Below, one piece after another: positions 10,291-59,928 of a DNA stretch of 64,000 nt. A program made the translations under genes and the position numbers. Numbering within the stretch: position 1 is the first letter of the stretch; each line of letters starts with the position of its first letter. Source of the DNA: Gammaproteobacteria bacterium (GTDB taxonomy: Bacteria > Pseudomonadota > Gammaproteobacteria > JACQPQ01); the NCBI GenBank assembly GCA_016207405.1, contig JACQPQ010000018.1:20767-84766 (forward strand), given 5' to 3'. The notes under the pieces are model-generated. The model saw only the letters and a program-made list of their open reading frames with translations, searched no databases and was not told where the DNA came from.

Positions 10291-10367
10291 GCGCCCGTAG
10301 CTCAGTTGGATAGAGTTCCTGGCTTCGAACCAGGCGGTCGGGGGTTCGAGTCCCTCCGGGCGCGCCA
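10291..10367 (+). tRNA. tRNA-Arg, anticodon TCG
   Basis: 77-nt cloverleaf GCGCCCG/.../CGGGCGC-G-CCA with anticodon loop CUUCGAA and T-loop GGTTCGAGTCC. Closely resembles E. coli tRNA-Arg. Confidence 0.85.
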
Positions 10368-10372
10368 GTTAA
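10322..10372 (+). repeat. attL, a 51-bp direct repeat comprising the 3' half of tRNA-Arg
   Basis: Identical to 16076..16126 (gcttcgaaccaggcggtcgggggttcgagtccctccgggcgcgccagttaa). Confidence 0.85.
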
Positions 10373-10380
10373 TCAAGGGG

Positions 10381-10869
10381 TTATACAACTTTCCGCAAAC
10401 CCATCTCAACCCCTTGCGGGACTTTTGCGGGAGCTACGTTCCGCAAAAGCTTGAGTACTGTGACTGTAGCGCTTTCCTTTTTCTCACACACTGCGTTTGC
10501 AGCACGAACTAAATTGGTTAATTCAGCTGCAGAATAGTGCGTGGTTATCCTCCCCGATCGATGCCCCAGTAAATCCTGTCGATCTTCAAAACTCACCCCT
10601 GCGGAACGCAAACGCCTCCCAAAGGTATGTTTCAGATCATGCACGCGAACGTCTATGCCAGCCAGTTTGCGCGCACGCTTCCAAGCTGAGTTGTTCATCT
10701 TGGTAACATAATGCCCTTTATAGGTAAAAACATATTCAGGATGCATCCCACGAACTTCTTCAAGCACCGATTTGGCAACACTGTTTAGCACTACCAATCG
10801 ATCCTCCCGGTTTTTGACAACATGAGCAGGGATCAAAAATACGCTCGTGTTTAACTCTGGTACAGACAC
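10381..10869 (-). pseudogene. Tyrosine recombinase/integrase remnant carrying only the C-terminal catalytic domain
   Basis: HDLKHTFGRRLRSAGVSFEDRQDLLGHRSGRITTHYSAAEL carries the R/HxxR/Y catalytic signature. Only about 160 aa remain and no N-terminal SAM/core-binding domain is recognisable upstream. Confidence 0.7.
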
Positions 10870-11274
10870 TTCCCACTCCCATCGTAGTTGACATACCTCT
10901 TAGAACACTGCGCAGTTACCTCTATCGACCAAAGTATCGATCCTTCTCGCGGCTACCGCGACGATTTTGAAATTGTAGTGGTTTACCGCTACCAGTACCA
11001 AACCATTTCTGTGTATGGCAAGCCTGGTACAAGCCACAATTTCAACGGCAAAACTTATGGTTGCGTGCTGTTTGAAGGCCACCCACTTGCCGCAGGTAGT
11101 GCTCCACGCGGTGCCAAAATGACTGAAGAACAGGCTACCGAGGTGTTCAATGCCTTGGTGAGTCTGTAAATCGGAAACAAGAGTATTTAAACCGTCATGT
11201 CCACGCATGACCTAGATTTGTAATGACCGTCACCACGTGGGTTTGGTGACACAGCCCTTTGAAAGGGGCAAAAG

Positions 11275-11910
11275 ATGAACAGTTTGCAATACAATGATGG
11301 CCTGCTCAATGCAGGTCGGACCCCGAAACTATTTTTGGTTCTCTCCAATGGAAATATCGTAAAGTTCCAGGGAGAAAACATCCCCGGCATCCTGGTCGTC
11401 AAATCCAGCAAATACCAAAAAAATGGCAAGTGGTCGAACACCACGTACCAACTGGAAATAGCTGATGGAGTTGGCGTCTGGGAAGCAACATCCCAAATGC
11501 ACCAAGGCTATTGGGATGCAATCGCTTCGTGGGAAGAAGCACAGGCGCACGTTATTGCACAAGGGGGCCACTTCGTTTCGGTGGAGGAAGTCAAACGAGT
11601 CGTTTTGGCTACGTGGGAAAAGGCCGCCGCTCGGTTTGATACCACAGCCGAAGCATTGGCGAAAATGACTGTGGCGCCAACGGAGCCAAAATCGTTTACC
11701 TTTGGAAGCCCAACCAACCGCGCCATCGAAAATGGCTATTGGGAATCCCCGAAGGAACACGATGGCGTGAGCTTCAAATTGGTTGATCCCACCAAAGGAT
11801 GGACAACGGGAAATGTGATCGCAGACAAACCTGGGATCGTGGTCACTAATGTAACGCATCGCTCAGGGATGCATGGAGGCTACTACACCATTCAGTATAT
11901 GGTTCAGTAG
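11275..11910 (+). CDS. Hypothetical island cargo protein with no recognisable domain
   Basis: 211-aa ORF followed by a hairpin and T-run at 11977..11995. Confidence 0.4.
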   Translation: MNSLQYNDGLLNAGRTPKLFLVLSNGNIVKFQGENIPGILVVKSSKYQKNGKWSNTTYQLEIADGVGVWEATSQMHQGYWDAIASWEEAQAHVIAQGGHFVSVEEVKRVVLATWEKAAARFDTTAEALAKMTVAPTEPKSFTFGSPTNRAIENGYWESPKEHDGVSFKLVDPTKGWTTGNVIADKPGIVVTNVTHRSGMHGGYYTIQYMVQ

Positions 11911-11976
11911 TCGTCCAACCGCACGGCTTTTGCCAACACCGACAATCTACAAGCAGCAATAAACGGTGTTAAACAG

Positions 11977-11995
11977 AGGCCCGCGGCCTTTTTAT
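11977..11995 (+). terminator. Putative rho-independent terminator
   Basis: aggcccgcggcct stem followed by ttttta. Confidence 0.4.
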
Positions 11996-12072
11996 TTGAG
12001 TCTCAAAAATAAACGGTCGATTATTTTTGAGTTATAATCGCTGCCTCAAGGGATAAAACCGAGACTGCTGAC

Positions 12073-12696
12073 ATGGACGAAACCACATCTCAAAAAACTA
12101 TTTCCTATCTGCGTGTTTCCACCATCGATCAAGATTTAGAAAAAAACAAAGCGGATATTCTGCATCTGGCGCACGAAAAACGTTTGGGTAAGGTTAAATT
12201 TGTGCAGGAAAAGATTTCGGGCGCCATCCCCTGGCGACAACGCAAGGTTGGCAAGGTGGTCAATCAACTCAAAAAGGGGGATGCATTGATTGTGAGTGAG
12301 CTTTCGCGCCTGGGTAGAAGCATGTTGGAATGCATGGAAATTCTTTCTATCGCCGCCCAAAAGGGTATTAGGGTTTATTCTGTCAAAGGTAACTGGCAAT
12401 TAGATGGCAGCATCCAAAGCAAAATCATCGCCATGGCCTTTAGTATGGCGGCGGAAATAGAGCGAGATCTGATCTCGAAACGCACGATTGAGGCCCTGCG
12501 CGCCAAAAAAGCCCAGGGCGTTACACTTGGCCGTCCTAAAGGCTCTGGCAGCAGCAAGCTCGACCCTGTTGCCCCTAAAATCCAAACAATGCTTAACAAG
12601 GGTGCAACCAAACGCGCCATTGCCAACCGTTTTAGCACCACGGAATCTAACCTGTATGTGTGGCTTAAGAAGCGGGAGGCCCTTGCAACAGCCTGA
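12073..12696 (+). CDS. Small serine recombinase of the resolvase/invertase family
   Basis: YLRVSTIDQ catalytic serine motif, the LSRLGRS motif and a C-terminal HTH. 207 aa. Confidence 0.85.
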   Translation: MDETTSQKTISYLRVSTIDQDLEKNKADILHLAHEKRLGKVKFVQEKISGAIPWRQRKVGKVVNQLKKGDALIVSELSRLGRSMLECMEILSIAAQKGIRVYSVKGNWQLDGSIQSKIIAMAFSMAAEIERDLISKRTIEALRAKKAQGVTLGRPKGSGSSKLDPVAPKIQTMLNKGATKRAIANRFSTTESNLYVWLKKREALATA

Positions 12697-20071: not shown

Positions 20072-20907
20072 GTAAACTTTTCTCCTAGCTCATAGCGCAC
20101 AAATTGTATAACATGCGCTCCGCCTTCTTTGAGAATTTCCCCAACCGTTTTTGAAGGATCTTTCACGAACTCTTGTGTATTAAGACTAATATCATGGGTA
20201 AACTTTTTGAGTCGCCCTTGCAATATTTTTTGAAGAATGGCTGCGGGTTTTGACTCTTTTTCCACTTGTGCTTGTAATATTTTTTTTTCTTTTTCGAGGC
20301 GCTTTTCACTCACGTCTTCAGGATTTAAAACCTCAGGGTTGCAGGCAGCAATATGCATCGCAATATTGCTCCCAAGCATGGAAGAGCCCGCACTCAACCG
20401 TACCAGAACCCCTATTTTTTTACCATGAAGGTATGTGTAAATGGCTTCTCCTTCCCCTTGGGTTTTTATCAAAACACCTCGACGAATTTGGATGTTCTCA
20501 CCACAACGGAGAATGAGCTCCTGCCTTGCTTGTTCAACAGTATGAGTGCTCGCATTTTGTTCAACAGGCAAGTTCTTGAGTTGTTCGAGATCAGTGTGTG
20601 GATGAGATAACGCGGAGCGGGCAACCTTTTCACCAAAAGATTTGAAAGACGCCTCGTTTGCGACAAAATCGGTCTCGCAGTTAATTTCCAGCATAACGGC
20701 TTGATGAGGCGTTTGCTGAATAAAAATAGCACCTTCGGTCGCAATGCGGCCTGCTTTTTTGGCGGCTTTGATTTGACCGGTGCGACGCATCAGCTCTATG
20801 GCATGTTCCACATCGCCCGCGCTTTCCACGAGCGCTTGTTTGCACTCCATAAGGCCAGCGCCTGTTCGTTCACGAAGTTCTTTTACGAGAGTTGCTGTAA
20901 TTGGCAT
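20068..20907 (-). CDS. tsf: Elongation factor Ts
   Basis: TATLVKELRERTGAGLMECKQAL N-terminus. Confidence 0.95.
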   Translation of the reverse strand: MPITATLVKELRERTGAGLMECKQALVESAGDVEHAIELMRRTGQIKAAKKAGRIATEGAIFIQQTPHQAVMLEINCETDFVANEASFKSFGEKVARSALSHPHTDLEQLKNLPVEQNASTHTVEQARQELILRCGENIQIRRGVLIKTQGEGEAIYTYLHGKKIGVLVRLSAGSSMLGSNIAMHIAACNPEVLNPEDVSEKRLEKEKKILQAQVEKESKPAAILQKILQGRLKKFTHDISLNTQEFVKDPSKTVGEILKEGGAHVIQFVRYELGEKFT

Positions 20908-21786: not shown

Positions 21787-21936
21787 ATTTTAAAAACTTA
21801 TAGAATTGGGTTAAGCCTCCACCTGCCCCATCTCTCCACTAAGACTTTTTACAGGTCTTAGCACCCAGAGAAATGTGTCGGCACGTGTGTGTTCTGTTAA
21901 AATGCGGTTTATACCACGAAACCTTATCATACAACA

Positions 21937-31536: not shown

Positions 31537-31725
31537 TAAGGGCCTGTAAAAGAATAACTTTTCCTTTTTAGCATCCCATCTTGGGCCCATCTTTGAATGT
31601 TTTGTTCTTCAGAAAAGCGCTTACATAGAATAACTATGCGCGCGTTTTTCGTTGAACAAAACATTCAAATCTGGACCCAATTCTCTGCGCTAAAAAGGAA
31701 AAGTTATTCTTTTACAGGCCCTAAG
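31537..31725. repeat. MITE-like nested palindromic element, copy 1
   Basis: Perfect 34-bp terminal inverted repeats (agggcctgtaaaagaataacttttcctttttagc) and an inner palindrome. About 90% identical to 40104..40290. Confidence 0.8.
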
Positions 31726-35603: not shown

Positions 35604-36397
35604 AAATTGCTTTAGGGTTAGAGTATGCGGGCAGTTGTTATTTTGGATGGCAGTACCAAGTTGGAAAAGCCACGCTGCAAGATATCCTAGAGAAAGCTAT
35701 TGGGCGTGTAGCGGACGCACGCGTGAGAATTCCTGTATGGTGTGCAGGGCGGACAGACCGAGGCGTCCATGCCATCCACCAAATTATTCATTTTGAAACA
35801 GTAGCCAAACGAGATCGGGAAGCTTGGCGACTCGGTATCAACCGGTATCTCCCGCATGACATTCGAGTGCTATGGGCAAAAGAAGTTCCTGATCTTTTCC
35901 ATGCACGTTTTTCTGCCCGCAGCCGTTCATATAGATATATCATCGACAATCATGCCATTACGGGGGCACTGTTTGCGAAACGCTCCTATGGTTTTCGATA
36001 TCCCCTCAATGTTTCCAAAATGTTAGAAGCTGCAAAGATCTGGATAGGGCAACATGATTTTTCATCCTTTCGGGCAGCGGGGTGTCAGGCCAAGCATGCC
36101 GTACGCACGGTGTACACCTTTTCAGCTACCCGAAACGGGCATTGGATTATCTTAGAGGTAAAAGCAGATGGTTTTTTGTATCATATGGTTCGTAATATGG
36201 TGGGGGTTCTGATCCCCATAGGGCAAGGATCGAGGCCTGTAGAATGGGCAAAAGTTGTGTTGGATGCCAAAGACCGAAAACAAGCGGGATTGACTACATC
36301 GCCGCAGGGTCTTTATTTTTTAGGAGCGCACTATCCGGAGCATTTTGAAATCCCAACCACACTTCGAGAAACTCTTCCATGTCTATACTCCTCATGA
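35600..36397 (+). CDS. truA: tRNA pseudouridine(38-40) synthase
   Basis: GWQYQ and RTDRGVHA motifs. Confidence 0.9.
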
Positions 36398-36427
36398 ATG
36401 AAGAGGCTGCTTTTCTTCTAGAATTTT

Positions 36428-36835
36428 TTAACGTTTAAATTCCGGAAAAAGTTGTAGCCCTTGGTTTTGTTTTCTTTGAATTTCTTCTTGTGTGTGTTCC
36501 AGTGCAATAAAACGCTCTGGGGTAGCTGGGTGAGTCCCCAAAAATGTTTGGTTAATACTGTCTGGATGTTCTGCAGCCATTCGTCGCCAAAAATCAGCAG
36601 CGTGGTTAATTGGCAATCCGGCACGAGCCATAATATAAAGGCCTACATAGTCTGCCTCGGCTTCGAATTCTTTAGAGTAAACTCTGCCACCCACACTGCC
36701 AAATATCCCAGTATCAACGCCCGTACCGGCTTCTATGACAGCATCAACCAATCTTCCTAAGAAAACATTTCGCTTTTGTGCATCCAGGTGTTTCATTGTA
36801 TTGTGAGCCAATTCATGAGCGATCACGAGTGCCAA
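36428..36835 (-). pseudogene. M48-family zinc metallopeptidase, catalytic half only and probably N-terminally truncated
   Basis: HELAHNTMKH at residues 6-10 and an EAEADYVG third-ligand motif. The N-terminal roughly 130 aa found in M48 enzymes are absent. vapBC lies immediately upstream. Confidence 0.5.
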
Positions 36836-36862
36836 TTCATCATCATTCTCAGTAAAACGAAT

Positions 36863-37300
36863 TCAATTATTGACATTTTTTATAGGAGTTAATTCAATAA
36901 TTTTGATTAATTCGAGAGAGGAGTAAACAGGGATTTTTGTAGACTTGAAGTCTTTTCTGTTTCTGCTGACAATTGCTTGACAGCCAGCATGAGCAGCCGC
37001 TTGGTAAATAACCGCGTCTTCATAATCTGTCATTTTTGTGCTCAAAGCAGTCGCCAAGACGGTGCGGTTAATCGGGGAAACTTCCAACAATTCCAGTATT
37101 TTTTCAATCGCTTGATGTGCTTTTTTTGTGCCAATGACCTTGGTAGCTAAATAATGAATGGTTGTAATCGAAGAGGCTGAAACATAACCGTTCATCCGAC
37201 CCATCTCAACGAGTGAAAAGAGCTTTGCAGCAGGTTCTGAAAACGGTTCTCGATCAAGTAAGACATCGAGGATGATGTTGGTGTCAAATAAGATCTTCAA
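36863..37300 (-). CDS. vapC: PIN-domain VapC toxin
   Basis: MKILFDTNIILD N-terminus with an acidic PIN signature. Confidence 0.8.
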   Translation of the reverse strand: MKILFDTNIILDVLLDREPFSEPAAKLFSLVEMGRMNGYVSASSITTIHYLATKVIGTKKAHQAIEKILELLEVSPINRTVLATALSTKMTDYEDAVIYQAAAHAGCQAIVSRNRKDFKSTKIPVYSSLELIKIIELTPIKNVNN

Positions 37301-37545
37301 AGGTATTTTTTTTCTAAATGACGATGGTAATCTTCTTTGGCAACTCTAGCATGTCGAAGAGAACCTCGCAAAAATTGAACGATAGGGGTGTTCTCCGTCT
37401 TTTCTATCCTTTTGTTTTGGTCGAGTAAAGAAAAGTACTTGGCTACGAGTTGTGATACCGATTGGTGATGCTGCTGTGCATAACGTTTGGCTCGCTCGAT
37501 GAGTGTTTCATCTAAACGAAGCGTTAATTTTGTTTGTGTGTTCAT
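37297..37545 (-). CDS. vapB: VapB-type antitoxin
   Basis: 82 aa. Overlaps the vapC start by 4 nt (ATGA). Confidence 0.6.
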   Translation of the reverse strand: MNTQTKLTLRLDETLIERAKRYAQQHHQSVSQLVAKYFSLLDQNKRIEKTENTPIVQFLRGSLRHARVAKEDYHRHLEKKYL

Positions 37546-37652
37546 AAGCGGTAGAGTGACGTATAATTTTTAATTAATTATACGCTGTAATTTGTCCCAT
37601 TTTCAAGGCGCAAAAAGAGGCGCATAGTATGACCACGTAACTCTTTTCAGAT

Positions 37653-38252
37653 TTGCTTATGTCACCCCGTATCAAAATTTGTGGAATAACCCATGTTAAA
37701 GACGCCTTAAGTGCAGCAGCATTGGGTGCGGACGCCATTGGCCTTATTTTTTATCCTAAAAGCCCACGCTTTGTGACATTCGAGAAAGCTCGTGCGATTG
37801 TCCAGGCGCTGCCGCCTTTCCTGACTGTTGTTGGGGTAGTCGTTAATCCGACGACAGATGAACTGTTGCTTCTTCGAAAAGAGGTTCCTCTGGATCTTAT
37901 TCAGTTCCATGGAAATGAAACGTTAGAATTTTGTGAATCCTTGTCTTTCCCTTATCTGAAAGCATTTCGTGTTTCTACTCCGAATGAAGTCAACTTTTCA
38001 AAATGGGAAGAAAGTCATGCAAGAGGGTTGTTGATGGATATGGGGGATAGTGGCGAGAGTTATGTTAAATGCCGAAAGCCTTTGATTCTTGCAGGCGGTT
38101 TAACCCCTGAAACGGTCGGGATTGCCATCCAAAAGCTTAAGCCGAGTGCAGTGGATGTTTGCCGAGGGGTCGAAAGGGCGCCGGGCGTAAAGGACGAAAA
38201 AAAATTGCGCGCGTTTGTGAAAGCGGTGAAAATGGCTTCTGTTTTTACTTAA
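37653..38252 (+). CDS. trpF: N-(5'-phosphoribosyl)anthranilate isomerase
   Basis: KICGIT N-terminus and QFHGNE motif. Confidence 0.85.
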   Translation: MLMSPRIKICGITHVKDALSAAALGADAIGLIFYPKSPRFVTFEKARAIVQALPPFLTVVGVVVNPTTDELLLLRKEVPLDLIQFHGNETLEFCESLSFPYLKAFRVSTPNEVNFSKWEESHARGLLMDMGDSGESYVKCRKPLILAGGLTPETVGIAIQKLKPSAVDVCRGVERAPGVKDEKKLRAFVKAVKMASVFT

Positions 38253-38670
38253 CCCATTCCACCTTAACACGAAGCTCCCCTGCTGATTTTGCTAAAATCT
38301 TATCAATAGTTAAGCAAATCAGATTTTCTGTGTAACATACAGCAAGATGTAATGCATCCAACGTTCGTAAAGAAGTAGCGAAAGAAGCTATCCATTCACG
38401 TGCCTGGGTGTAATGCGGTTGCTCTAATAGTTTGAGGCAGTAATACTGCTTTTCAACGTGTGCCCGAAAAACGTTTATCAGAGCATGCGCAGAATCATTG
38501 GTGATCTCTTTCATGCGCATTTTTCGCGCAACAGCAGAACAGTATTCAACTTCTACTAATGGACTAATCACCGGATTTTTAATGCCGACAAGAATCTTTT
38601 CAACCTTCCTACTCAAAGGCTCTGGACAATAAAATGGGATAATAATAGATGTATCCAGATAATAACTCAA
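38245..38670 (-). CDS. PIN-domain toxin, VapC-like
   Basis: MSYYLDTSIIIPFY N-terminus. 141 aa. Confidence 0.75.
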   Translation of the reverse strand: MSYYLDTSIIIPFYCPEPLSRKVEKILVGIKNPVISPLVEVEYCSAVARKMRMKEITNDSAHALINVFRAHVEKQYYCLKLLEQPHYTQAREWIASFATSLRTLDALHLAVCYTENLICLTIDKILAKSAGELRVKVEWVK

Positions 38671-38912
38671 AACCTCGTCTCCTCTCGCTCCGAAGACAAG
38701 GCTTGGCTGAGCGTTCCTTTTATTTTAATGGTACTTCGAAAGTCTGCCATGCTAGGAAGGATGGATTCCAAATGATAAGGAATAAGGCGAGCGATAGGTT
38801 CATGTCTTCTTAGAATTAAAACTTCCTTACCATGCATTACACTATTTAATAGTTCATGCATATGAGCACGCATTTCTTTCACTTGAATGTGCATCATAGA
38901 ATTTTCTCTCAA
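38667..38912 (-). CDS. Phd/YefM-type antitoxin
   Basis: Overlaps the toxin start. IQVKEMRAHMHELLNSVMHGKEVLILRRHEPIARLIP matches the Phd/YefM fold pattern. Confidence 0.6.
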   Translation of the reverse strand: MRENSMMHIQVKEMRAHMHELLNSVMHGKEVLILRRHEPIARLIPYHLESILPSMADFRSTIKIKGTLSQALSSEREETRF

Positions 38913-38984
38913 ACGTACATATTAAGTGTACACCAAAAAAGCAGCGGATTCAAATGAAAATATTATTTTTTTTGTCATAGCGAT

Positions 38985-39011
38985 TTGACAATTCTGGGGG
39001 GGGGCTAATCT
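38985..39011 (+). promoter_or_regulatory. Putative sigma70 promoter (TTGACA, 15-nt spacer, TAATCT) whose spacer contains a G9 homopolymer tract
   Basis: ttgaca at 38985..38990, a G-run at 38996..39004 and taatct at 39006..39011. An AGGAGG RBS lies 8 nt before the ATG at 39033. Confidence 0.4.
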
Positions 39012-39032
39012 TTAAGTTAGGAGGATAAATTT

Positions 39033-40031
39033 ATGATGAAAAATAAAAGTGTAGGAAGTTACCTTTCAATTTTGTTTGCTTTGGGATTTATCGCAAGCGG
39101 TGTGGCGAGTGCGGCAGAAGTGGCAATGGAGGTTTTTAGCGAGGTCAGTGGGGGAGAGGAAGCGGCGCAGCCTTCGGGCCCACTCGTAAACATGATTGAC
39201 AGTCCTGAAAAGATAGGGATTGGTCTGCTTACAATGACTGATGCCACAGGTAGGGTAGATAATTGTACGGGCACAATGACAAGCATGGATGAGGCGACGA
39301 TGTTTTTTGTTTTAACCGCTGCGGACTGTGTCAAGCCTAGGAAAGGTAGTGTGAAATATAAAACTATTACCTTTCTGCTCCATAAAGGAAAACGTTCAAT
39401 AAAAGTAGATAAAATCGTCGTTCCTCCTGAGTGGAATAAAACTCATGAACTCAAATACAATTATGCACTCTTGCATCTTTCAATTACGCTAGAGGAATTA
39501 GTTCCTGATGCAAGTTATGGCTATGAAGGGGATTCGATGTTAGTAACTTATTCCATCTTGAAAGACAGAACGAGTGGGAAAGAACAAAATAAGACAGATC
39601 CATGGAGAAGTGGAGGGCCAGTTGAAGCGAGACTGTATGGATATCAGTGGGATAAGACATTCCATTCGTTAAAAACAAGCAAGATACCACACCCTTATTC
39701 TTGCCTTGGAGAACCATCCAGATGGAAGTTTTCGAATATTGACAGCTTTGCTTACTGGGAACTCGTTAAGCTCAAAGATGAGCAAGTCTGTCGCACGTTA
39801 GTAGATGCTCACTATGGGTTAGAGCAATTTATAAAAGGAGATAGCCCTTCTTTACGAGGAAGTCCAATGGTATTTGGTGCTCCTAATGGTATTCACCCCA
39901 ATATAGACACAGTCGTGGCGGCCATGCTTGTTTCGAAGAATTCGGAGATGAAGTCTATATTAGTCATCAACAACAAAATGCTTGGTCAATTTTGGAATTG
40001 GGCTAAACAGTTTCAAAAAAATAAGAAATAA
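39033..40031 (+). CDS. Secreted trypsin-like protein with a His-to-Asp substitution in the catalytic triad, a possible pseudo-protease
   Basis: Signal peptide. CTGTMTS...FVLTAADCV aligns to the CTGTLI..LTAAHC His box. NYALLHL aligns to DIALL. GDSPS aligns to the Ser box. Confidence 0.45.
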   Translation: MMKNKSVGSYLSILFALGFIASGVASAAEVAMEVFSEVSGGEEAAQPSGPLVNMIDSPEKIGIGLLTMTDATGRVDNCTGTMTSMDEATMFFVLTAADCVKPRKGSVKYKTITFLLHKGKRSIKVDKIVVPPEWNKTHELKYNYALLHLSITLEELVPDASYGYEGDSMLVTYSILKDRTSGKEQNKTDPWRSGGPVEARLYGYQWDKTFHSLKTSKIPHPYSCLGEPSRWKFSNIDSFAYWELVKLKDEQVCRTLVDAHYGLEQFIKGDSPSLRGSPMVFGAPNGIHPNIDTVVAAMLVSKNSEMKSILVINNKMLGQFWNWAKQFQKNKK

Positions 40032-40103
40032 GGACTATACCATCCCGTGCCAGAAAAGCCCCGGGAATCTTTTATCCGGGGCAGAGTTTCGTCTTGTCGG
40101 ATC

Positions 40104-40290
40104 TGAGGGCCTGTAAAAGAATAACTTTTCATCTTTAGCATCCCATCTTGGGCCCATCTTTGAACGTTTTGTCCTTCAGAAAAACGCTTACATAGAATAA
40201 CTATGCGCGCATTTTTCTTTGAACAAAACGTCCAAATCTGGACCCAATCTGGGCGCTAAAAAAAGAAAAGTTATTCTTTCACAGGCCCTA
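40104..40290. repeat. MITE-like nested palindromic element, copy 2
   Basis: Same TIRs and core as 31537..31725. Confidence 0.8.
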
Positions 40291-40376
40291 AGTGCTTATG
40301 CTTGATCCGACCTACAAAACTCCCGTGGGCTTGCCCATGGGAGTGCCCACTTTAGAGATCTCCTGTATACTTTTGC

Positions 40377-41579
40377 GTGATGAATTTCACTTCTCCTTAC
40401 AATCTGCCAGATGCGAGAGGACACTTTGGCCCTTACGGAGGGCGCTTTGTTGCGGAAACCCTGATGATACCCTTATTGGAACTTGAAAAAGCCTATGAAG
40501 AGGCATCACACAATCCTGCATTTTTGTCGGAACTTTCAGAGGAACTTCTCCATTTTGTAGGAAGACCCTCTCCGTTATATCTTGCAAAACGCTGGAGTAA
40601 AGCATTGGGGGGGGCAACCCTCTACCTCAAACGGGAAGACTTGAATCACACGGGTGCCCATAAAATTAACAATACGGTTGGACAAGCCTTGCTTGCGAAA
40701 AGGATGGGGAAAACACGCCTCATTGCAGAAACGGGGGCGGGGCAACATGGCGTTGCAACCGCTACGGTTGCTGCCAAATATGGATTTCAGTGTGTGGTCT
40801 ACATGGGTGTTAAGGATATGGCGCGCCAAGCTGTCAATGTCGAGCGGATGAAACTTTTAGGCGCAACTGTCCAACCGGTTCCGAGTGGCTCTCAAACTCT
40901 AAAAGATGCGCTAAATGAAGCGATGCGCGATTGGATCACCCATATCGACGATACGTTTTATGTGATCGGAAGCGTTGCAGGGCCTCATCCTTATCCTAAA
41001 ATGGTGCGAGATTTTCAGGCCGTCATTGGTAAAGAAACACGCCAGCAAATGATGGAACAAGCAGGGCGTTTGCCCGATAGTTTGGTCGCTTGTGTGGGCG
41101 GGGGTTCGAATGCCATTGGTCTTTTTTACCCCTTTTTGAATGAACCTTCTGTAACATGCTTTGGCGTAGAAGCTGCCGGGCACGGACTGAATACGGGGCA
41201 ACACAGTGCTTCTTTAGCCAAAGGGCGAGTGGGTGTTCTGCACGGCAATCGAACGTATCTTTTGCAGGATAGAGCGGGACAAATTCAAGAAGCGCATTCC
41301 ATTGCAGCCGGGTTAGATTATCCGGGCGTAGGGCCTGAACACGCTTGGCTAAAAGACTGTGGCAAAATTCGCACTGTGAGTGTAACCGATGAAGAAGCGA
41401 TATCGGCTTTTCATGAACTTGCATTACACGAAGGTATTCTGCCTGCATTAGAATCAAGCCATGCGTTAGCGTATGTCAAAAAAATAGCACCCACTTTCCC
41501 TAGCCATACCCTTATCGTCGTTAATCTTTCTGGACGGGGTGATAAAGACATTCATACTGTTTTATCTCAAACACAATGA
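40377..41579 (+). CDS. trpB: Tryptophan synthase beta chain
   Basis: [12 protein letters not shown]-lysine motif. Confidence 0.95.
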
Positions 41580-42382: not shown

Positions 42383-43251
42383 GTTGGCTTAAAAAATTAT
42401 TACCTTCCATTGTTCGAAGGAGAACCGCAAGCAAGAAAGCAATCCCAGAGGGGATATGGTCAAAATGTCCGGCTTGTGATGCGTTTTTATATGCTTCGGA
42501 ACTCGAACGCAATCTTTATGTATGCCCTAAATGCCAGCACCATATTCGACTCCGTGCTAGGAAGCGCTTGGAAGGATTCTTGGATAGCGAACCTGAAGCA
42601 GTCGAAATCATCGACAAAATTACATCCACTGATTTTCTAAAATTCAAAGATACTAAAAAATACAAAGACAGACTTTCGGCCGCCCAAAAAGAAACAGGCG
42701 AAAAAGAGGCACTCATTGTCATGAAAGGGCGACTGAAAGGAAGTCCTGTCGTTGTCGCTTGTTTTGAGTTCGCTTTCATGGGGGGATCGATGGGAAGTGT
42801 TGTGGGAGAGCGATTTGTGCGTGCTGTAGATCTGGCTTTAGCCCAAAACATTCCTTTCATTTGTTTTGTAATGAGTGGGGGGGCTCGCATGCAAGAGGGA
42901 GTCGTTTCTCTTATGCAGATGGCTAAAACCAGTGCCGCGCTTGCGCGCCTCTCGGAACATGCCATTCCCTACATTTCTGTTTTAACCGATCCGACAACGG
43001 GAGGTGTTGCAGCGAGCCTCGCGATGCTGGGAGACATTATTATTGCAGAGCCTAATGCTTTGATCGGATTTGCAGGGCCCCGTGTGATTGAGCAAACCAT
43101 TCGAGAAAAACTACCCGATGGTTTTCAGCGGAGTGAATCGCTACTTCAGCATGGGAGCATCGATATGATCATAAATCGACGTGAGGTGAGGGATAAAATA
43201 GCGTCCATACTGGGTAAGCTCACGCCTTCTGTTTATACCCAATTAACTTGA
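42379..43251 (+). CDS. accD: Acetyl-CoA carboxylase carboxyltransferase beta subunit
   Basis: Zn-ribbon CPACDAFLY...CPKCQHH and a CT domain. Confidence 0.95.
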
Positions 43252-43419: not shown

Positions 43420-43833
43420 CCGCGTGGTCCAGAAAATGGCTTTACCAAAGCGTTTAACTGGATGCCTCAGAATGTGCTGAATGGTTACAAAATTTATACG
43501 TGTCGTATGCAAATTGAAGAAGGTTTTCGAGATTTAAAGAGTTCGCAATATGGTTTTGGATTTGAAAAATCTCGAACAAAGCATATTGCTCGGATCCAAG
43601 TATTATTGTTGATTGCGATGCTTGCGGCTTTGTTCGCTTGGTTGACGGGATGGGTAGCCGAGCAGCGAGGTTTGCAATATAAGTTTCAGGCCAACTCCAT
43701 TAAGCACAAGAGGGTTTTATCGTTATTTTTCCTGGGATGCCGAGTCATCAGTAAAAGAATACACTTTTTGCTGGGGGAGCTCTTTGAAGGGCTTATTAAT
43801 ATTCAACTTAAATTAAGTGTTGTATGTGTTTGA
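43420..43833 (+). mobile_element. IS4-family DDE transposase 3' remnant, C-terminal roughly 135 codons only
   Basis: Y(2)R(3)E(6)K signature in YTCRMQIEEGFRDLK. There is no upstream catalytic DDE region. GC hairpins at 43270..43293, 43369..43391 and 43410..43424 precede it. Confidence 0.6.
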
Positions 43834-59181: not shown

Positions 59182-59928
59182 ATGTTAACCATTCAAAATT
59201 TACAGAGCAGCATTCAGGGCATAGAAATTCTGAAAGGCATTGATTTAACGGTCAAGCCGGGTGAAGTACATGTCATTATGGGCCCCAATGGATCGGGTAA
59301 AAGTACACTGGCGCAGACTTTGGCGGGGCGAGAAGACATCCTTGTGACAAACGGGAGTGTCCAGTTTTTAGGGCAAAATTTATTGGCTTTGTCTCCTGAA
59401 GCGCGTGCACAAGCCGGGTTGTTTCTGGCTTTTCAGTATCCTGTTGAAATACCAGGGGTGAGTACGCTGTTGTTTTTGAAAACCGCTTTAAATAGTCTTC
59501 GCAAGGCGCGTGGGGAACCTGAGCTCGATGCCCTTGAGTTTTTGAATAATATCCAAGAAAAAGTTCGACAAGTTAAAATGGATGAACGTTTTTTACAGCG
59601 CTCTTTAAATGAAGGATTTTCGGGGGGGGAAAAAAAGCGGAGTGAAATTCTACAAATGCTCGTTTTAGATCCTAAATTCGCCATACTGGATGAAACCGAT
59701 TCCGGCTTGGATATTGATGCGTTAAAAGTTGTTGCAGAAGGGGTGAACAGCCTCAGGAAACCCGATAGAGCCATTCTCGTCGTGACGCACTATCTTCGGT
59801 TGTTGGAGGTTATGGTTCCGGATATTGTCCACATATTATGGGACGGGCGTATTATTAAGTCTGGCGATAAAACGCTCGCCAGGGAGCTTGAGCAACGGGG
59901 TTACGAGTGGTTAACAGAAAAGGCATAA
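59182..59928 (+). CDS. sufC: Fe-S cluster assembly ATPase SufC
   Basis: Walker A GPNGSGKST and ABC signature LSGGEKKR. Confidence 0.9.
   Translation: MLTIQNLQSSIQGIEILKGIDLTVKPGEVHVIMGPNGSGKSTLAQTLAGREDILVTNGSVQFLGQNLLALSPEARAQAGLFLAFQYPVEIPGVSTLLFLKTALNSLRKARGEPELDALEFLNNIQEKVRQVKMDERFLQRSLNEGFSGGEKKRSEILQMLVLDPKFAILDETDSGLDIDALKVVAEGVNSLRKPDRAILVVTHYLRLLEVMVPDIVHILWDGRIIKSGDKTLARELEQRGYEWLTEKA

Follow-up and report, generated by a model that had tools for sequence, protein, structure and literature searches.

A G9 run between the promoter-like boxes of an orphan secreted pseudo-protease gene in an uncultured gammaproteobacterium: a candidate length-sensitive spacer

Results

Genomic setting of the 332-residue gene

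The window, by which we mean the whole 64,000-nucleotide stretch analysed here, carries the gene order truA, a block with an M48-like fragment and a PIN_3/DUF6364 toxin-antitoxin (TA) module, trpF, a second block composed of VapC-Phd on the minus strand, a gene for a 332-residue protein and a palindromic repeat, and then trpB, trpA and accD. The gap between trpF and trpB measures 2127 nt, while at 73 related loci its median is 5 nt and its maximum 1085 nt, and therefore the TA module, the 332-residue gene and the repeat represent a lineage-specific 2.1-kb insertion. The GC content of the inserted block is slightly lower, at 0.415. The truA-trpF-trpB operon (36397-40380) is broken twice, each time by a block with a TA module, the truA-trpF gap being 1261 nt where 55 relatives have a median of 23 nt. 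The vapC stop and the 3' end of trpF share 8 nt.

The downstream boundary of the inserted block is a MITE-like palindromic repeat (40103-40292) located between the pseudo-protease gene and trpB. This element of ~190 nt has a second copy at 31539-31725 (92% identical), and its 70-nt arms are 79% complementary, with an RNA fold of -87 kcal/mol (z = -11.7). The copy at 40103-40292 holds a promoter-like TTGTCC-18-TAGAAT (40169-40198) that points to trpB. Elsewhere in the window, a tRNA gene followed by integrase-like and serine-recombinase-like ORFs (10291-12696) may represent an integrated element, accD has a fragment of an IS4-like transposase after it (43462-43833), and a t44 RNA (Rfam RF00127) lies upstream of rpsB (21810-21909).

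A secreted protein with a trypsin-like barrel and a replaced triad

The orphan gene (39033-40031, plus strand) encodes a Sec-type signal peptide, MMKNKSVGSYLSILFALGFIASGVASA/AE, followed by a trypsin-like N-terminal barrel. The signal peptide with its ASA/AE cleavage motif was read by eye from the translation. The Pfam Trypsin family matches weakly over residues 78-156 (E=3e-4), and a profile alignment to thrombin places TAADC opposite TAAHC and YNYALL opposite RDIALL. His57 is thus exchanged for Asp and Asp102 for Asn, the candidate segment for Ser195 reads RGSP, and the catalytic triad His57-Asp102-Ser195 of an active S1 protease is not found. With the S1 (trypsin/chymotrypsin) proteases the protein shares the vLTAAxC and xxALLxL contexts, the Pfam match and a signal peptide; in contrast to them, it has other residues in place of His57 and Asp102, a C-terminal half that cannot be recognised and a family of only two sequences. 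Judged from these motifs, "secreted pseudo-protease" appears to be a fair label for the product. An AlphaFold model (pLDDT 36.6) was unusable.

Among 5.8e9 clusters the protein matches only itself, and an exhaustive HMMER search of 1.84 billion representatives returned one true relative, P0009, plus one distant genuine trypsin. P0009 (301 residues, 29-35% identity, from run SRR22388016) is encoded at positions 28-933 of the metagenome contig L083, and its motifs, TAASC and YNYAFL, correspond to His57 exchanged for Ser and Asp102 for Asn. This contig starts 27 nt before the ATG, with GAGAGGGGGAATTTAAAGGAG, so that the promoter itself is cut off. Those 27 nt contain only GAGAGGGGG, a short G5 run abutting an A/T-rich -10-like segment, which neither supports nor refutes a conserved run. 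Both family members adjoin TA modules, Phd/VapC in the window and HEPN/MNT on L083. A further Phd/VapC module, 72% identical to that of the window, is found in the same sample as P0009 on a contig (L085) that also breaks in the upstream region.

The divergent Phd/VapC operon and the extent of its regulatory DNA

On the minus strand, the intergenic region is preceded by a Phd/YefM antitoxin gene (38667-38897; Pfam PhdYeFM, 1.2e-6, just below the cut-off) and a PIN-domain VapC toxin gene (38245-38670; Pfam PIN, 9.4e-15), the stop and start codons of which overlap. The promoter of this operon, on the minus strand, is formed by TTGAAT (38953-38948), 17 nt and TACACT (38930-38925), spanning 38925-38953 and scoring 13.3 in the position weight matrix (PWM) scan, and it is overlapped by the operator-like palindrome GTACACTTAATATGTAC (38915-38931). 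An antitoxin, an overlapping PIN toxin and a palindromic operator at its own promoter are the features of a type II TA module. An unrelated metagenome contig (L084, 2481-2520) carries TTGAAC-17-TACACT and an identical palindrome with a VapC that is 74% identical. There the TA module sits after pth, which ends right at the -35 box, and the similarity to the window stops at this point. From this comparison we place the boundary of the TA cassette right at the TA -35 box. Because the TA promoter and operator are conserved and the similarity ends at the -35 box, the region with TTGACA and the G9 run is not TA regulatory DNA, and the remaining 79 nt, which include it, belong to the pseudo-protease gene.

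The intergenic region between the antitoxin gene and the 332-residue gene spans 135 nt (38898-39032). Since the TA genes are on the opposite strand, the 332-residue gene needs its own promoter within this region.

Geometry of the promoter-like site and of the poly-G run

An earlier sequence-only reading of the window had described, upstream of the pseudo-protease gene, the arrangement TTGACA / 15 nt / TAATCT / AGGAGG / ATG with a G9 tract inside the spacer, and direct reading of the sequence agrees with it in every element and coordinate. The -35 hexamer TTGACA (38985-38990, plus strand) equals the consensus at 6/6 positions and lies outside the conserved TA promoter. The spacer ATTCTGGGGGGGGGC (38991-39005) comprises ATTCT, the G9 homopolymer at its centre (38996-39004) and a C, its last base, at 39005, corresponding to position -13. 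The -10 candidate TAATCT (39006-39011) agrees with the consensus at 3/6 positions and keeps the three most conserved ones (T1, A2, T6). A second candidate, AATCTT (39007-39012), overlaps the first, has a 16-nt spacer at G9 and contains both A-11 and T-7.

A Shine-Dalgarno sequence, AGGAGG (39019-39024), is located 8 nt 5' of the ATG at 39033, and the run is placed 21 nt before this Shine-Dalgarno/ATG unit. An in-frame TAG at 39018-39020, upstream of this ATG, leaves no room for an N-terminal extension, and therefore the G9 run is non-coding; the same stop together with AGGAGG 8 nt before the ATG fixes the start codon. A second ATG follows directly at 39036. Counting the usual 6-8 nt past the -10 box, transcription is predicted to start at ~39016-39019. 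The predicted start would fall on the Shine-Dalgarno site, which would then occupy the very 5' end of the mRNA, with a leader of only ~14-18 nt. A stretch with 19 A/T among its 21 nt (38959-38979, including T8 at 38966-38973) precedes the -35 box at roughly -60 to -40 and resembles an UP element in composition. An A/T-rich -60/-40 region is typical of sigma70-preferred promoters (PMC3141248).

The -35 box is also overlapped by a perfect 6-8-6 inverted repeat, TTGTCA-TAGCGATT-TGACAA (38972-38991). Its position would allow a repressor bound there to cover the pseudo-protease promoter, but finding a repeat of such a size in a 120-nt region is near chance. Two further ideas about the run itself were rejected. 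As an RNA element it has a fold z of -0.7 and no Rfam family match, and a sigma32-like site on the minus strand, using the C9 (CTTAAA ... CCCCAGAA), has by eye a spacing of ~11 nt, which is too short, and lacks the AT of CCCCAT.

Promoter score as a function of run length

The site was scored with a PWM that approximates the hexamer frequencies and the spacer preferences of E. coli. With this matrix TTGACA at 38985 anchors all top plus-strand candidates within 38900-39040. Changing the run length in silico gives scores of 8.6 (G8), 10.6 (G9), 12.7 (G10), 14.2 (G11), 12.9 (G12) and 10.9 (G13). The arithmetic of the earlier proposal, in which a gain of two G residues leads from the present 15 nt to an optimal spacer, therefore holds, with 17 nt reached at G11. 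Its description of the spacer as sub-optimal is correct for TAATCT, but it missed the AATCTT register, which at G9 scores nearly the same with 16 nt (10.4 versus 10.6). The existence of this alternative register softens the notion that the promoter is off at 15 nt; through it, the G9 promoter might already have a low, constant activity.

A separate scan of the whole window on both strands, with a slightly different spacer normalisation, found only 46 sites that reach a score of 11.5. Intergenic DNA, which makes up 13.5% of the sequence, holds 13 of these 46 (~2-fold enrichment), and both TA promoters are among them; the score thus carries some information in this genome. On the model, the promoter as assembled with G9 lies below the 11.5 level, while versions with G10 to G12 would rank with the best sites of the window. 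Read from the sequence, TTGACA-G9-TAATCT appears to be the only credible sigma70-like promoter on the plus strand of the 135-nt region. The assignment of the site to the pseudo-protease gene is favoured by these sole consensus-like plus-strand boxes and by the location of the TA promoter elsewhere, and is weakened by a -10 element that agrees with the consensus at only three positions and by the presence of two registers. On balance we consider it probable that the site is the real promoter of the 332-residue gene.

Run length in other assemblies

A look-up of the exact 332-residue protein retrieved only two other contigs, both short Logan contigs, which are 100% identical to the window over 1.2 kb and hence probably sample the same population. 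One of them (L001, from SRR12113385) spans the run and reads G9, which shows that the run is not an artefact of one assembly; the other (L002, from SRR12113401) begins only 8 nt past it. At the other end both contigs stop at 40163, a position in the repeated element, which accounts for this end. The window and L001, the two assemblies in which the run is complete, agree on G9 and thus show no length polymorphism. The break at the start of L002 was considered as a sign of heterogeneity in the run and rejected, since the branching of a k=31 graph would be expected within the run itself and not 8 nt past it, and since coverage was evidently low.

No orthologous promoter was found in the genome, metagenome, viral contig or plasmid collections, a variable-gap DNA pattern of the promoter had no match in metagenome contigs, and the TA genes with their intergenic DNA had no plasmid match. 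Each tested protein of the window among MBI4356519-27 is alone in its own 90% cluster, and the closest TrpB among 185,579 species representatives is 74% identical, so that there is no close relative for comparison. The 18-mer TTGACAATTCTGGGGGGG gave six matches in IMG/VR, which fall into four unrelated contexts with no similarity beyond the query, about the number expected by chance according to our own estimate, and were discarded. Through the same search a phage promoter surfaced on three IMG/VR contigs (L087, at ~11229, L089 and L090) that reads TTGACA-ATTCTGGGGGGGTCTGT-TACACT. Its 17-nt spacer contains G7, and the 11 nt that precede this G7 are identical to those preceding the run of the window. 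This likeness is probably a coincidence.

Chance expectation and repeat content of the window

How unusual is a G9 run at this place? When the window was shuffled 100 times with its dinucleotides preserved, 23 shuffles had at least one G9 (mean 0.34); G8 matches number 4 compared to 1.64 expected (p ~0.11), and TTGACA-N14-19-TAnnnT is observed 3 times compared to 3.5 expected. Taken singly, the run and the boxes are at chance level. Only their combination, a run exactly in the spacer and before the Shine-Dalgarno sequence and ATG of a divergent gene that needs its own promoter, exceeds simple chance, and this combination was defined post hoc. A G9 between good boxes can arise at about chance frequency, and therefore the geometry by itself is not evidence for a contingency locus.

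The window contains nine G/C runs of at least 7 nt, and the numbers of such runs are near the shuffle expectation. The G9 run is the longest and the only intergenic one. The other eight sit in housekeeping genes, namely a 517-residue ORF (two runs), rpsB, trpB (G8), accD, an IscR-like gene, sufC (G8) and sufS, which indicates that the genome tolerates such runs. The G8 of trpB (40607-40614) provides codons for LGGA, that of sufC (59622-59629) is part of a G8A7 sequence in the ABC signature SGGEKK (59622-59636), and tsf contains a T9 (20280-20288). G7 runs are located at 42877, 57494 and 61734. Multi-copy simple sequence repeats (SSRs) are absent from the 64-kb window, and so is the signature of contingency loci, an enrichment of SSRs at the promoters and 5' ends of envelope genes. 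At the level of the genome, the expectation that came with the idea of a contingency locus was thus not borne out in the window.

Discussion

Comparison with known phase-variable promoters

In Bordetella pertussis, a poly-C run lies between the activator site and the -10 box of fim2 and fim3. The window promoter resembles these and opc in that a homopolymer of the promoter region would tune the transcription of an exported or surface protein in graded steps; it differs in that the run is cleanly placed between intact -35 and -10 hexamers and that no activator site is evident. In opc of Neisseria meningitidis, the poly-C run encompasses the -35 region (PMC7864442). The closest counterparts are found in porA of N. 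meningitidis, where a poly-G run separates the -35 and -10 elements (van der Ende et al. 1995, as cited in PMC5084427 and PMC7864442), and in tp0126 of Treponema pallidum, where a poly-G run occupies the same position and transcription is best at 17 nt (PMC7864442). As in porA, the G homopolymer forms most of a sigma70-type spacer, the product is exported, and the maximum is expected at 17 nt with less output from shorter spacers. With tp0126 the site shares the poly-G position and, by prediction, the 17-nt optimum, and the regulated proteins are signal-peptide-bearing envelope proteins there.

The differences are equally clear. For porA, length variation and its effect on expression have been demonstrated experimentally, whereas here the case is built on sequence geometry; the porA genome is rich in SSR contingency loci, whereas the window has none; and a porin is replaced by an orphan pseudo-protease in an uncultured environmental gammaproteobacterium. 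In T. pallidum, the tp0126 and tpr runs vary by fragment-length analysis and change the output of GFP reporters, and the tprL poly-G run is mostly 9 nt long, with a range of 7-11 within isolates (PMC7864442). In tprE/G/J, runs of at most 8 are permissive (PMC7864442), which is opposite in direction to the prediction for the window promoter. Finally, the divergent fimbrial promoters of hifA and hifB in Haemophilus influenzae contain TA repeats (van Ham et al. 1993, as cited in PMC5084427). In both cases two genes diverge from an intergenic region that has a repeat in a promoter spacer, but one dinucleotide repeat governs two overlapping promoters in hifA/hifB, whereas the TA promoter of the window is separate (38925-38953) and would be unaffected by the G run.

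A run that may set promoter strength

We hypothesize that the gene for the secreted trypsin-fold pseudo-protease, which is monocistronic and was inserted horizontally, has a sigma70-type promoter in which the G9 run forms the spacer. A consensus -35 box and an A/T-rich upstream region would be combined with a weak -10 element (TAATCT or AATCTT) at 15 or 16 nt, which would make the promoter weak as assembled. Slipped-strand gain of one or two G residues at replication would bring the spacing to 16-17 nt and raise transcription, while loss of a G would shut the promoter further. In this way the run would set expression heritably yet reversibly, as a mutational rheostat of the porA/tp0126 type. 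This hypothesis presumes that RNA polymerase uses the site, that slippage of the run is frequent enough to be useful, that expression depends on run length and that the run is under selection.

The earlier claim of a phase-variation switch is favoured by the geometry, the predicted signal peptide and the match to porA and tp0126, and is opposed by the lack of a contingency-locus pattern in the window. Nine uninterrupted G residues reach the length at which slippage is expected (at least 7-8 nt), and the product would be a secreted or surface protein according to the signal peptide predicted from the translation. However, the source is an environmental metagenome-assembled genome and not one of the host-restricted pathogens in which such switches are typical. 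That changes in run length measurably modulate promoter output in natural populations has, in our estimate, a chance only a little under even. That the run is a selected contingency switch and not an incidental mutable run seems to us unlikely.

The most serious alternative is that the homopolymer is incidental, a run that arose by chance or grew by mutation upstream of a recently acquired, fast-evolving orphan. The promoter would then be fixed and weak, or the gene largely silent or decaying, and the run would undergo background slippage that the cell does not use. This agrees with the 23% of shuffles that contain a G9 and the modest excess of G8 (4 versus 1.64), with the long runs in trpB, sufC, accD, rpsB and tsf that cause no apparent harm, with the absence of other SSR loci in the window, and with the repetition of G9 in both assemblies that span it. 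An orphan pseudo-enzyme on an inserted block with a GC content of 0.415, and a homologue without a long pure run in its 27 visible nt, point the same way. It is at odds with the precise placement of the run, which has a 6/6 -35 box on one side and the best available -10 element of the sole candidate promoter on the other, and with its being the longest and the only intergenic G/C run of at least 7 nt. Moreover, if the promoter is real, a spacer with G9 is sensitive to length by physics alone, and the strong Shine-Dalgarno site, the intact ORF and the intact signal peptide argue against a dead gene. We give the incidental explanation a substantial chance, below one half, and regard it as about as likely as the switch reading.

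A promoter of the sigmaS (stress or stationary-phase) type, on which the RpoS holoenzyme would have little need of a well-spaced -35 box and physiology instead of run length would set expression, is considerably less credible, and we consider it improbable. According to PMC3141248, the traits of sigmaS-preferred promoters include a C at -13 or TNGC, an A/T-rich discriminator and a -35-like element nearer than 17 nt. The segment GGGC-TAATCT-TTAAGTT indeed has C at -13 and GC at -14/-13, which fits TNGC, its discriminator has one G/C in 7, and the -35-like element is nearer than 17 nt. The same source, however, describes sigmaS-preferred promoters as being without a conserved -35 box and without an A/T-rich -60/-40 region, whereas the site has a 6/6 -35 box and 19/21 A/T at -60/-40. 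In addition, TAATCT departs from CTATACT at the two central positions, and rpoS is not present in the 64-kb window.

Could the TTGACA/G9 region instead regulate the divergent Phd/VapC operon, through a TTGTCA-18-AATAAT site and a TTGTCA-N8-TGACAA operator? The minus strand offers a match at 10/12 positions, TTGTCA (38991-38986)-18-AATAAT (38967-38962), and the 6-8-6 palindrome at 38972-38991 overlaps the -35 box. We consider this very improbable, since the better promoter TTGAAT-17-TACACT (13.3) adjoins the antitoxin start, the TA promoter and its GTACAC...GTAC palindrome are kept in L084, where pth ends at the -35 box and nothing farther upstream is needed, and the presence of a perfect 6-nt inverted repeat in 120 nt is close to what chance predicts (~0.3 by our own estimate). 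The L084 comparison led us to reject TTGTCA-18-AATAAT as a TA promoter.

Dark-cycle chemistry is known to create artefactual poly-G. A sequencing or assembly artefact, such as two-colour Illumina poly-G or a mis-joined contig, is nevertheless scarcely credible: although L002 starts 8 nt past the run, the G9 is found in the interior of an 85-kb contig, with unique sequence to its left and right, and L001, which comes from a different sequencing run, repeats it without a single base change. The DNA around it is coherent as the intergenic region of two real genes. A G count that is off by one is possible, and G10 would give 16/17-nt spacing and change the predicted state.

Implications

The reading of the run as a promoter-spacer tract of the porA/tp0126 type is plausible but unproven, and would add at most a new case of a well-known mechanism. 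In its broadest form, the hypothesis is that an uncultured gammaproteobacterium, free-living or protist-associated, uses a porA-like poly-G switch for a lineage-specific secreted pseudo-protease on a TA-linked insertion that splits truA-trpF-trpBA, and that transcripts reading through from this switch might also affect trpBA-accD farther downstream; we regard this combined proposal as speculative and improbable.

If the run proves invariant, the locus would be a reminder of caution, showing a chance-frequency G9 between good boxes in a genome that carries G8 inside essential genes. If the run varies, homopolymer-based transcriptional phase variation, known from a small number of host-adapted pathogens, would gain an example beyond them, and it would become easier to learn when the cell makes an orphan secreted pseudo-protease that is otherwise uninterpretable. 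Should the switch reading be true, contingency behaviour would extend beyond host-restricted pathogens, and to a non-catalytic effector with a protease fold.
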